Assembly: GCA_012862495.1 (NCBI GenBank)
Contig: BLSG01000333.1
Coordinates: 30,187 to 68,755 of the forward strand
Origin: Thraustochytrium aureum
Taxonomy: Eukaryota
DNA: 38,569 nucleotides
Direction of reading: 5' to 3'
The notes under the pieces are model-generated. The model saw only the letters and a list, made by a program, of their open reading frames with translations, ran no database searches and was not told the DNA's origin. How positions within the stretch are numbered: position 1 is the first letter of the stretch; each line of letters begins with the position of its first letter. Both the position numbers and the translations under genes were made by a program. Positions 27,962-35,138 of the stretch are shown here, piece after piece.

Positions 27962-29256
27962 TTACATTAGATCGGCAACGTTGGCTGGGAGGGGCGGGAT
28001 GCGGATCTTGTAATGCTGCTCAATGCCCCGCAGGACGCGGCGGTCTTCGTCCGTGACAAAGTTGATCGCGATCCCCTTGCGGCCAAAGCGACCAGAACGT
28101 CCGATGCGGTGCAGGTACAGCTCGCGGTCCGTTGGAAGGTCAAAGCAGATGACAAGCGAGACCTGCTGCACGTCAATGCCGCGCCCCCACAGATCGGTGG
28201 AAATGAGCACGCGGCTCGCCCCAGAGCGGAACTCGTTCATGGTCGCGTCGCGGTCCTTCTGGTCCATCTCGCCGTGCATGGCTGTGACCGTGAAGCCGGC
28301 GGTTCGCATCTCCTTGAGAGCCAGTCCACCTTTTTGCGCGTGTTGCAAAAAATGACGGCTTGCGTAATGGTGAGCATGTCGTACAGATCGCAGAGCGTGT
28401 CAAACTTCCACTCCTCCTTCTCGACGTCTACGTGGAACTGCTTGATGCCCTCCAGGGTGAGCTCGTCGCGCTTGACGAGGACGCAGACAGGGTTGTTGGT
28501 CATTTTGCGGGCCATGCGAAGCACCTCCGGCGGCATGGTCGCGCTGATGAGCACCACCTGCACCGCGCTGGGCATGAACCGATAAATGTCGTAGATTTGC
28601 TCGAGCGAGCCGCGCTGCAGCAGCTCGTCCGCCTCATCGATCACGAACTGGCGCACCGTCCCCGTCCGGAGATTTTGGCGCTTGATCAGGTCGAAGATCC
28701 GGCCCGGCGTTCCAGACACGACTTGCACGCCGGCCTCGAGCTCGCGGATGTCCTCCCCAATCTTCTTGCCGCCGATGCACGCATGGCACTGGATGTTGGT
28801 GGCAGAGCCGAGGGCCTTGAGCACGCTGTGCGTCTGCTCGGCTAGCTCTCTCGTCGGCGAGAGGATGACCGCCTGCGTGTTCCGCTCTTTGTTGTTGACG
28901 ACTTGGAGAACGCCGATGCAAAAGACGCCGGTTTTCCCTGTCCCGCTCTGGCTCTGAGCGATCAAGTCGCGCCCCGTGACGATGGGCACAATGGCGCGCT
29001 GCTGGATCGCCGACGGCTTTTCAAACCCAAAGGCGTAAATTCCCCGGAGCAGCGACTCCTTGAGCCCCATGCTGTCGAACGACCGGAACGCCTTGACGGC
29101 CTCGCTTTCGCTAATCTCTGTTGCGGCCACATCCTGAAGCACCGCGACGCGCCGGGCACGCTTCCCCGCGTCGTCTCGCTCCGCCGCCTCCCGCGGCCTC
29201 TTCTTCCCGGGGCTGGCGTCCTCGCGGCCGCTGGAGCTCGGCCGGCGTTTTTCCAT
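27962..29256 (-). CDS. EIF4A3: DEAD-box helicase eIF4A-III-like (exon junction complex core), with a 1-nt frameshift near 28316
   Basis: Q motif [82 protein letters not shown] and [13 protein letters not shown]. Confidence 0.9.
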
Positions 29257-31621: not shown

Positions 31622-34600
31622 ATGAAGGGCATGCTGCGCGTCGCCGCGGCGGCAGCCGTGGCCCTCTTGGCGGCGACCGTCACGAGCGCCGCCGACGATT
31701 GCGCAGAGTGCGATCGTGTCGAGAGTTTGCTCAGCGTTACCCTTAGCGCAGAAGCGAAGGCTCAGATCAAGCAAGACACGCGATCTCGCACGGATGACGG
31801 GCGCGTGGTTGTGCAAGCCGCCGGGGCGTCGTTTCCTTACCGCCTGTACGACGACTCGATCTTCGCGTACCAGTTCAAGGAGCAGGGTGTCCGTGTCTCG
31901 TACGTGTCGACGGGCTCTGGCAAAGGCCAATGCAGAATCAGGGATTACTGGGAGGAATGCAGCAACCCCTACCGGCCGACTGGCTCGAAGGACGACAAGA
32001 TCTCCCCGCTCTACGTCGATTTCGCTGGCTCGGACTCCGTGTTTAAAGATTCCGATTTCGCTGAATACCCCGACCTGCAAATGTTCCCCGCTGTCGCCGG
32101 CGCAGTCGTGCCCATCTACAACCTTCCGTCCCTCGGAAACCACACGCTCGTTCTGGGCTTCGAGGAGCTCTCGCGCATCTTTCGCAAGTGCACCAACGAA
32201 ACTGAGGCCGAGCTCAACGCGGAGTTCAATTCGAGCAAGACCTGCGCAGAGAACTCTATTGGGCATTGGGGCCACGAGGACATCGTCAAGTACAATGAGG
32301 AGGTGAGGGATCAGCTGATCGCCGCCGGGCCGATCGAGGTCGTTGTGCGCTTGGACGAATCTGGGACGACTGAGATTTGGCGTCAGTCGCTCAGCAAGTT
32401 TGACGATTATAACACGCAGGTCGGCGAAGGCAAGGACAACTCAGAGTACTTTGCCAATGTGACCAAGCACGACACCAACATTGGTGTCGCCGGTTATGTG
32501 GCCGTCACGCAAGGCACGATAGGCTACTCTGTCCTTGGCGAGGCTCTGACGGTGGGTCTTTCCGTTGCAAGTCTCACCAAAGTCGCCGGCGCCGAACCTG
32601 TCGTTGCGTCAACCGAATCGGTGAACAACGCAATGGTGGAGCGCGGCCTCGACTTTGGCACCGGTGAAGCTGCCAAAGAACGCCTCATTGCAGACATCTC
32701 GCGCGCCGAAGGCTCACAGGCCTGGCCAATCGTCGGCTACACCTACTTCGTGATCAGGAAGGACACGGTCCGCCCGGGCGCAACGATCGAAAACGTTCGC
32801 GCGACGCAAGACTTCTTCACTTGGTTCTACACGAACGACGTCCCCAAGAGCATCGCTCGCTCGCTCGGATTTTCGCCGCTTCCCGACTCGGTGCGCGACC
32901 GGGTCTTGGAGAGCGTGACGAAGAACATGCTGTTCAAAGGCAAAGCAGTCTACGTGCCGCCGTCGGATTCGTTGCCAAAGCTCAACTTTGCCGGCCTCGC
33001 GAGTCTCGAGAGCGTTTTTGCTGCCTATGAGCGCTCGTACGCGGTGCTCGACCCAACTGCCATTTTCGAGGCCCCTCAAGCCAGTATCGTCCAAGGAGGC
33101 CATCGTTGGCCAGAAGAGCGCCGCGTTTGGCGACATTTCCGCTGTGCTTGCGTCTGCTACATCGGAAGACGCTGGCGAGGGCCTTGTCGTGTTGCCATTC
33201 GCTGGCGTCGCTCTCGGCGCCATCGTCAACTTTTGCGGCTCCGATTCCGACTCGTGCTCTGTGATGAACCAGGCCGACGTCACGATGACGCTCGAAGTGC
33301 TTGCCAAGGTGCTCTCCAAGGAGATTACCATGTGGAACGACACTGCACTTACTCTCCTCTCCCCCCAGCTCGGAAACGTTCCAGAGCCAATCCTGGTTGT
33401 CGGAGTCGACGGCGACGACGAGCTTCAGGAGCGGTTCGTCGCGCTTATGCGGGAGATTACGGGGAAGCCAAGCTTCAACATCGTTCCAGACTTGAAAAAG
33501 GGCAACGTCGAGCAGCAGCGAAGTGCCATTGCGACGTTGCCGTATTCGATCGGCTTCACTGCGTTCATTGGGGACGTCTCGTTGCGCTTTTCCAAGACGG
33601 TCAAACTGAAGTATAAAGCCGAGTCTGAGCCAGCCGCTCCGACGTACGACGCGATATCCAAGTGCGCAGAGCCGATCAACTACAACTCGCTGGACAACAC
33701 CTTCAACTTTCGCAAGGCAGGTGAAAACACTATCGGCTGCTACCCGCTGGTCGAGGCCATCAATCTTGTCACTCGCTCATCGTACACCGGCTCAGCCAAC
33801 ACCGGCGAGGGCCCCGAGTGCAACAGACTCCTCACTGGCCCGGGACAAACCGCGGCCAAGTTTTTCGGTTTCATCTTCAACAACGTGCTCAACGGCGACC
33901 GCTCGGTTGAAGCCCCGCTGCGAACCCAGGGCCTCTTCCCGCTCCACTCTCTGCCTTTTGCGCGAGCCAACAATCTCAAGTTGCTGAACAGCATTACCTG
34001 CGATGGGGTCAGCATCCTTACGCCAACCGAGGAGCGCAACCTGATTCCGAAAGGCGTCATCATCTTTGCCTTCACGGTGGTTGGCTTTTTCGCCATTTTG
34101 TGCATCGGTTTTGGGTTTTGGATCAACTACAACCGCAAGCGCAAGATCGTGCTCATCTCCTCCCCGCCCTTCATGATCCAGATCCTCGTCGGGGCCGTTC
34201 TTTGTGTGTCCGCCATCATCCCGCTTGTAATGCAAGACGACGACTTCCTCGCTGAGGCGCAAGACACCATCAACTTCCAGAGCAACCCGAACGCGGTGCC
34301 GAACGATTATGCTATCCTTGACGCGGCATGCATTGCGGCCCCTATCCTCTACTCTGTGGGGTTCGTCATCCTGTACAGCTCGCTGTGGCTCAAGACCTGG
34401 CGCCTCGAGAAGATCTTCAACAACCCCAAACTGAAGCGCGTCTACATTACCAACAGGAGCATGCAATTCTACCAGGTCCTGCTCCTCCTGGTTGTCGTCG
34501 GACTCAACGTGGTCTGGGTTATCGTTGACCCGATGCACTGGGAGCGTGTGATTGTTCAGGAAGATGCCCAGAACAGAATCCTCGAGTCTTACGGGCGCTG

Positions 34601-35138
34601 CAGCTCTCCCAATAGCATCTATCTCGGCGCCCCACTCATGGGCATCCTGATTTTCAGCCTTCTCTACGGGCTGCTCCTCGTTTACAAGTCGCGCCGGATC
34701 CCCTCAGAGTTTGGCGAGGGCAAGTACATCGCCTTTAGCCTCGTCACGGCCTTCGAGTCGTTGATTCTCGGCATCCCGATCCTCTTTATCGCCGGCGACA
34801 ACCCCACCGCGCGGTTTTTCGTTTTGCTCACCATCATCTTGGCCACCTCGATCGCCACCGTGTGCTTCCTGTTTCTCCCCAAGGTGGTGTGGGTGTACAC
34901 GTGGGGCTGGGCCTCCAACTCCAACAGCGACTCGGGCGCGCGGTCGCAAACCATCACCGGCCAGACCTCGAAGCCGCGAATCGACGACATTACTGTGCAA
35001 TCTGGTAGTTTCATCGGTAGCTTTGGCGACGACCGCACTTACCAGGGTGCTGGTATGCGCTCGTTCCGTAACGCTTCCGACCGCCGACTCTCGAAGAGCA
35101 CGACCGATCGCCCCGACGAGGAGGACCAGTACGTCTAG
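31622..35138 (+). CDS. Signal peptide + two PstS-like (type 2 periplasmic-binding fold) domains + class C GPCR 7TM domain, about 1170 aa; one extra C in 33072-33075 splits it into two ORFs
   Basis: Signal MKGMLRVAAAAAVALLAATVTSA. PstS motifs AGASFP, TGSGKG, VDFAGSD, FPAVAGAVV.IYNLP, VVRLDESGTT, GTIGY, AWPI, FFTW and PLPDSV, then a second degenerate repeat. The 7TM region has ISSPPF, LKTWR, W..VDP, RRIPSEFGEGKYI and FLFLPK (GABA-B/7tm_3-like). Confidence 0.9.

Follow-up and report, generated by a model that had tools for sequence, protein, structure and literature searches.

The window analysed here is the whole stretch of 38,569 nucleotides from Thraustochytrium aureum (assembly GCA_012862495.1, contig BLSG01000333.1, positions 30,187 to 68,755 of the forward strand), which is eukaryotic DNA with a GC content of 62% outside 13 N gaps. 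Two overlapping open reading frames (ORFs) on the plus strand, 31622–33616 (ORF1) and 32919–35138 (ORF2), together encode a protein with two outer domains of the PstS fold followed by a seven-transmembrane (7TM) region of the GABA-B type. Judging from its sequence, this protein is likely to be a cell-surface receptor for outside inorganic phosphate. The first-pass annotation, made from the DNA letters alone, had suggested that removal of one C in the run 33072–33075 would restore a single frame; the read-through does so and gives 1171 residues. The N-terminus is hydrophobic from residue 3 and forms, as that annotation had also claimed, a probable signal peptide extending to approximately residue 23, as assigned without a dedicated predictor.

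The extra C is very likely an assembly error, and the gene single, because a read-derived contig, the continuity of the homologues, the codon composition and a control indel elsewhere in the window all point the same way. Contig 4 of run X1 (825 nt; depth 4.7), which spans 32373–33198, has one base fewer at position 33072, exactly as predicted. The frame-corrected protein, with X at the break, aligns nearly end to end with 10 of 18 homologues, and an eleventh 7TM protein has 25% identity to it over 1094 columns. Nine full-length homologues cross the break position with a gap of no more than one residue, while the pieces specified by the alternative frames, i.e., the tail of ORF1 and the head of ORF2, have no match at E<=1 among the 18 homologues. 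The GC content at third codon positions drops from 0.75 to 0.41 in frame 1 at the break and rises from 0.58 to 0.78 in frame 2. As a control, X1 differs from the window by further indels in 8.5 kb (12 listed and 8 more). An eIF4A-type DEAD-box helicase gene on the minus strand (27970–29256) is also interrupted, a one-base gap near 28315 breaking the frame between the DEAD and HRIGRSGR motifs, and X1 fills this gap. These indels, including the broken helicase, indicate that the assembly is indel-prone, which casts doubt on any further frameshift reported from this window or genome. Relatives of the receptor exist as complete transcripts, namely P0003 (MMETSP, 'type:complete') and clusters from Heterosigma and Mucochytrium.

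It is very improbable that the break is genuine, be it the mark of a null allele, of two genes rather than one, or of programmed frameshifting. The support from X1 is a single contig of depth below 5, from a run that is possibly the source sample of the window itself, and X1 differs from the window at nine single-base positions in 4 kb, which indicates that alleles or strains differ. Against a real break stand the absence from X1 of precisely the predicted base, the parallel break in the helicase gene, the uninterrupted homologues, and the properties of ORF2, which lacks a separate signal peptide and begins with a head that matches nothing.

The first half of the protein contains a Pfam PBP_like_2 domain (63.8 bits; cut-off 27), for which the best sequence match among solved structures in the PDB is PstS (E value 4e-20). 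In Foldseek comparisons, the model of a Hondaea homologue matches PstS chains with template modelling scores (TM-scores) of up to 0.91 by target. The phosphate contacts of E. coli PstS, which we take to be T10, F11, S38, D56, R135, D137, S139, G140, and T141 (the residues at these positions having been read from the E. coli pstS sequence), align with S70, F71, S99, D138, R243, D245, S247, G248, and T249 of domain 1, and all nine contact positions are kept. In PstS, D56 selects protonated phosphate. The nine positions are likewise kept in 34 of the 43 complete first domains of the closer relatives, nine truncated rows having been set aside. According to the accessible text of PMC10443332, nearly all ligand-bound prokaryotic structures of PBP_like_2 proteins contain phosphate. 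A pair of Cys residues at the positions of residues 389 and 438 of the window protein occurs in 37 of 41 first domains; both are lost in the window protein, P0006, and P0008, and a single side is lost in P0050. The loss of both sides together suggests a disulfide. Domain 2 closes with a C...ITC pair resembling that of domain 1.

The second domain retains the fold but has lost the site. Its PBP_like_2 match reaches 18–20 bits, under the Pfam cut-off of 27; of the two PBP_like_2 hits and one 7tm_3 hit expected by the first-pass annotation, one PBP_like_2 and the 7tm_3 were thus recovered above cut-off. A profile built from second domains matches E. coli PstS (E value 1.6e-27), and the model of domain 2 (predicted local distance difference test, pLDDT, 87.5; predicted template modelling score, pTM, 0.85) matches PstS in Foldseek (E value 5e-14; TM-score 0.65). 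Its superposition on PstS has a Z score of 23.0 (root-mean-square deviation 3.1; 278 residues aligned), the first non-phosphate protein following at Z 9.7. Two PstS-like repeats had been proposed, with a type 2 fold where other receptors have a Venus flytrap, and both outer domains bear this out; the accompanying description of two phosphate-binding domains fails for domain 2. At the nine PstS contact positions the residues are A-S-S-A-V-G-D-E-L, and the motif R-x-D/E-x-S-G-T/S is found in 0 of 45 second domains, whereas 45 of 52 first domains and all 27 prokaryotic controls have it. This comparison employed a MAFFT alignment of 17 proteins together with the motif count, since hmmalign to the domain-1 profile was too gapped. 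The residues kept in second domains (W571, C681, and C706 in 41/41; C793 in 39/41) belong to the core and the cysteines and not to the cleft. With its second site lost, the head comprises one binding domain and one degenerate copy, which has evidently been retained for a long time. A hydrophobic stretch near residue 520 was considered as a transmembrane helix and rejected, as the model shows it to be one of the beta strands of domain 2, and a long one. Prediction of a two-copy complex of residues 456–815 of Hondaea P0001, with the alignment not used, gave scores of 0.12 and 0.05 against a mark of 0.32.

The second half of the protein matches Pfam 7tm_3 with 132.8 bits (cut-off 33.5), and the best solved match of this part is GABA-B2 (E value 3.4e-20). 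Seven hydrophobic segments start between residues 812 and 1067. The stalk that precedes them has approximately 18 residues, as in GABA-B, and the Pfam scan gave no NCD3G match that would indicate a cysteine-rich domain. The class C signatures claimed from the sequence, KTWR, RRIPSEFGEGKYI, and FLPK, are all present. The signature residues include C903 and C993, the Cys pair of transmembrane helix (TM) 3 and extracellular loop 2, K924 and R927 in TM3, E1032 in TM6, and P1086-K1087 in TM7. Among 28 7TM sequences including that of the window, C903, K924, C993, and E/D1032 are conserved in 28/28, R927 in 26/28, and the PK pair in 27/28, one of the 28 being truncated. The available part of PMC3727952 names these residues as features of class C activation. 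For the Hondaea homologue, a model of the whole protein (pLDDT 77.7) was matched by Foldseek to PstS and to GABA-B/GPR156 separately, and the structural comparison with PstS and GABA-B suggested earlier was thereby borne out for both, on a homologue's model. Canonical G-protein-coupled receptors (GPCRs) of class C, such as mGluR, GABA-B, and CaSR, have a Venus flytrap domain of the type 1 fold, whereas PstS is of type 2. In the window protein the canonical type 1 Venus flytrap (ANF_receptor) is absent and the outer domains are PstS. Other non-canonical heads on class C receptors of protists are described in the accessible portions of PMC3971589 and PMC3727952, and with such non-animal receptors in print the protein is less canonical but still class C. 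The tail shares with the five closest homologues a motif similar to S-x-x-F-I-x-S-F and an acidic end closing in Val, which may be an export or PDZ-type signal. The features of the gene are collected in Table 1.

Table 1. Coordinates of the receptor gene and its predicted parts within the window
Feature	Position	Strand	Basis
PstS-PstS-7TM receptor coding sequence, intron-less, 1171 aa with the extra base discounted	31622..35138	+	Identity to full-length homologues
Probable signal peptide, aa 1 to ~23	31622..31690	+	Hydrophobic N-terminal stretch from residue 3; cleavage placed by eye
PstS domain 1, aa 55-445, phosphate-contact positions intact	31784..32956	+	PBP_like_2, PDB matches, alignment to E. 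coli PstS
PstS-fold domain 2, aa 456-800, phosphate site lost	32987..34022	+	Profile, motif count, model
C run with one surplus base; frame break early in domain 2	33072..33075	+	X1 contig, homologues, GC at third codon positions
Short stalk, C793 (last Cys of domain 2) to TM1 (~811)	34023..34058	+	Alignment; no NCD3G match
Class C 7TM, aa 813-1087	34059..34883	+	7tm_3, hydrophobicity, signature residues; closest solved match GABA-B2
Ser/Thr-rich cytoplasmic tail	34884..35138	+	Comparison with five closest homologues

Relatives were collected by three word-indexed searches and one full profile-library search; the latter gave 1743 matches at E<=0.001, the best 150 of which were used. At least 56 relatives carry 7tm_3, and the second domain is present in 54 of 56 (27/27 in the closer and 27/29 in the more distant set). 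Of the relatives with a species name, Hondaea fermentalgiana GBG32804.1 stands nearest, with 48% identity over 1099 columns, and full-length proteins from Hondaea, MMETSP, and JGI share 46–48% identity with the window protein over approximately 1100 residues. Relatives with the 7TM and a named source come from Hondaea (three paralogues), Mucochytrium, Heterosigma, Mallomonas, and Plasmodiophora; a further one is filed under Batrachochytrium salamandrivorans BASA81. The expectation that the architecture might exist elsewhere among protists was thus correct, stramenopiles and Plasmodiophora being represented, and one cluster in the ESM Atlas, of 52 members, combines PBP_like_2 with 7tm_3 (score 0.98). 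P0017 (Plasmodiophora brassicae CEO97692.1), which is 25% identical to the window protein, keeps 9/9 contacts in domain 1 and has a degenerate domain 2. In the domain-1 tree, P0031, the record labelled BASA81, groups with tandem receptors and Heterosigma among protist sequences, and the species given for it could be an error. In a FastTree phylogeny, from which 16 of 124 rows (short domains, P0052, and every other prokaryotic row) were left out, the second domains fall together on one side with support 100, but their branches are long; the tandem head may derive from a single duplication. The identities of domains 1 and 2 are correlated (Spearman 0.57; 41 proteins; 0 of 999 shuffles as high), which, as kin share labels, shows joint inheritance and not co-function.

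The same tandem head is attached to other outputs. It is found on class III cyclases (P0041 and six more), on a WWE-PARP protein (P0267), and on an MHYT protein (P0046), while P0275 has the order PstS-PstS-7TM and ends in an RGS domain. In Tetraselmis astigmatica P0047, the head is joined via one membrane helix to a cAMP-type phosphodiesterase, and in P0048 (Tetraselmis striata cluster), P0319, and P0328 it is joined in the same manner to a glutaminase; these fusions could couple outside phosphate directly to cAMP or to the metabolism of nitrogen. Euglena longa and E. gracilis have an expanded family of single-pass proteins that bear the tandem head (P0010–P0012, P0029, P0037, and P0040), where the tails have a weak class III cyclase match (CyaB; E value 0.072), a candidate label for domains that are perhaps inactive. 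Other arrangements include PstS-PstS with an ANF Venus flytrap (P0277) and four PstS domains with Eph-like repeats and a TRP-like membrane region (P0246). A single PstS head with 9/9 phosphate contacts is present in the receptor guanylate cyclases P0053 (Batillaria attramentaria KAK7492270.1), P0300, and P0312, which have the order PstS-TM-kinase-like-cyclase, and the P0053 type is a candidate animal phosphate receptor. An Atlas cluster combining PBP and kinase is commonest in Mollusca (score 0.84) and is given here as a lead only.

The PBP_like_2/7tm_3 architecture is already in print. The accessible text of PMC3251606 (2012) lists PBP_like_2 in SPPG_06488 of the chytrid Spizellomyces punctatus among fungal receptors of the Glutamate family; as in the window protein, a PBP_like_2 ectodomain is combined with a class C 7TM, and the listing there is by Pfam only, without a ligand proposal. 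In PMC4815078 (2016), as far as its available portion goes, fusions of PBP_like_2 and 7tm_3 in P. brassicae are single transcribed genes, four of which are read as phosphate transporters, and they are called 'transporters unique to P. brassicae', with none in other eukaryotes. Their domain order is that of the window protein, and P0017, which was not matched to the gene names of that paper, likewise has an intact first and a degenerate second domain. The relatives in other protists contradict the claim of uniqueness, and here the Plasmodiophora proteins, whose architecture was misread, appear as one branch of a broad receptor family. The accessible parts of PMC12716839, PMC12221091, and PMC4053784 contain nothing on PstS heads.

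Several known systems resemble parts of the protein. With GABA-B (GB2/GB1) and the other animal class C receptors it shares the sequence and fold of the 7TM and the switch residues, and with GABA-B also the short stalk without a cysteine-rich domain, but the GABA-B sensor is a type 1 Venus flytrap and that of the window protein a type 2 PstS pair. Bacterial PstS (E. coli 1IXH/2ABH, of PstSCAB) has the fold and the nine contact positions of domain 1; the window version differs in being fused to a 7TM, in being duplicated, in falling below the TIGR00975 cut-off, and in having no PstCAB among the scanned neighbours. BvgS/EvgS sensor kinases place two tandem type 2 clamshell domains, one perhaps ligand-free, over a membrane signalling unit; they differ as bacterial histidine kinases with another binding-protein family and another output. 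CaSR senses phosphate through sites in its Venus flytrap at about millimolar concentration, whereas the window protein is predicted to have a dedicated high-affinity PstS site as its main ligand pocket. CaSR is described as a class C GPCR responding to outside phosphate in the available portion of PMC8476121, which cites Centeno 2019 for this.

In the proposed mechanism, phosphate would be held between the lobes of domain 1 and would close the clamshell. The movement would then be passed through the short stalk to the 7TM by domain 2, which probably holds no ligand and is likely to owe some stiffness to disulfides; the contact between K924 and E1032 would shift, and a heterotrimeric G protein would be switched. 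The receptor probably acts in a dimer, as do other class C receptors. We consider this sequence of events, in which domain 2 would serve as a ligand-free spacer, reasonably probable. In a labyrinthulomycete-like host, the output could, as a guess, be the steering of zoospores, settlement or the control of phosphate scavenging. The occurrence of the same tandem head on cyclases, a phosphodiesterase, glutaminases, and PARP, together with RGS on one 7TM member, favours a sensor over a transporter. According to the accessible text of PMC6050695, G-alpha domains and those of class C GPCRs are over-represented in the genomes of thraustochytrids.

A receptor with another agonist, i.e., a phosphate ester, a phosphonate or other oxyanion in domain 1, or some ligand of domain 2, with phosphate acting as co-ligand or modulator in the way it modulates CaSR, is unlikely. 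It would accord with the many distant paralogues in which D56, G140 or T141 is changed and R135 is kept (58/66), a pattern indicating that the scaffold has been retuned, with the acidic D-E-L found at PstS S-G-T in domain 2 of the window protein and of six of its eight closest relatives (P0001–P0008), which could be another site, and with the binding of arsenate or tungstate by some PBP_like_2 proteins reported in the available part of PMC10443332. The window protein, however, keeps all PstS contacts including the equivalent of D56, and domain 2 conserves its core and cysteines and not its cleft. We regard as quite improbable a role, without a G protein, as co-receptor or transceptor partner, in which the protein would catch surface phosphate and pass it on to a separate transporter or regulate one. 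In bacteria, PstS not only supplies a transporter but also stimulates a chemoreceptor, according to the accessible portion of PMC10443332, and coupling of the window protein to a G protein is a prediction; yet the residues of TM3, TM6, and TM7 on the G-protein side are almost invariant, one family member is fused to RGS, and no phosphate transporter lies among the 19 neighbouring ORFs scanned. Very unlikely indeed is a phosphate transporter composed of the binding domain and a seven-helix pore, as proposed from homology for the Plasmodiophora proteins, which are expressed during infection (PMC4815078, in its accessible portion, where no transport assay is described). The membrane part is that of GABA-B, mGlu, and GPR156 by both sequence and fold, the receptor switch residues are kept, and the same head occurs on single-pass enzymes incapable of transport; these receptor residues and enzyme-linked cousins argue against transport.

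Other observations weigh against a dedicated phosphate receptor. Domain 1 scores 162.9 with TIGR00975 for PstS, under the cut-off of 205. In favour of the phosphate reading, conservation across 25 receptors is highest in domain 1 (mean identity 40%, compared with 30% for the 7TM and 22% for domain 2), but its figure is inflated by the use of domain 1 as the query for relatives. The pTM of the full-length Hondaea model (0.43) leaves the relative placement of the domains not fixed. In the distant set, 9/9 sites are found in 18 of 47 complete first domains and, among distant 7TM members, in 6 of 21; D56 is kept in 37 of 58, and the RGS-bearing P0275 has a degenerate domain 1 site with 5/9 contacts. 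With such altered sites, a tie to phosphate does not hold for the entire family. A functional test of a fusion of PBP_like_2 with 7tm_3 was not found in the open-access literature, supplements aside, in agreement with the earlier statement that no functionally characterised PstS-GPCR is known. The family is diversified, and the window gene belongs, as far as its contact positions indicate, to the part with an intact phosphate site. Among the possible readings that of a receptor is the best one, in which we infer phosphate binding and G-protein signalling.

The genes that neighbour the receptor are unrelated housekeeping genes. Pfam matches were obtained in 10 of the 19 ORFs scanned, which specify a Rab, a RabGAP, an RRM protein, PCMT, an NAD-glutamate dehydrogenase, a nickel-insertion protein, a Na/Ca exchanger, the DEAD helicase, and BAP31, and these 19 ORFs include neither a phosphate transporter nor an ABC component (PstCAB). 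An exact-sequence search of the protein collection showed neither ORF as assembled to be present. A metagenome scan with the second half of the gene gave 192 pattern matches, of which 0 were confirmed, and no related locus.

Sensing of outside phosphate is poorly resolved in eukaryotes. The cases known comprise transceptors, internal signals, and the calcium-sensing receptor's modulation (PMC8476121, in part). Tentatively, and with somewhat less than even confidence, we propose that the pair of an intact and a degenerate PstS domain is an old eukaryotic module that senses outside phosphate and is portable, that the window gene is a dedicated high-affinity phosphate GPCR, and that the family is a missing layer of protist signalling on outside phosphate. 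The sensor would have been fitted to class C GPCRs in stramenopiles and Plasmodiophora, to cyclases, including those of euglenids, to a phosphodiesterase and glutaminases in Tetraselmis, and to PARP and MHYT proteins, with a single-domain cousin on receptor guanylate cyclases of invertebrates. The reading is cheaply testable, by means of the soluble domain, the usual reporters for GPCRs, and thraustochytrids in culture that have close homologues. If true, it would correct the published view that the fusions are transporters confined to a single parasite and would offer a ready scaffold for a phosphate biosensor. There would then be a class C 7TM that a clamshell of type 2 drives across a spacer domain without ligand, and a GPCR with a dedicated PstS site would sense phosphate directly at concentrations as low as those in seawater and soil water.

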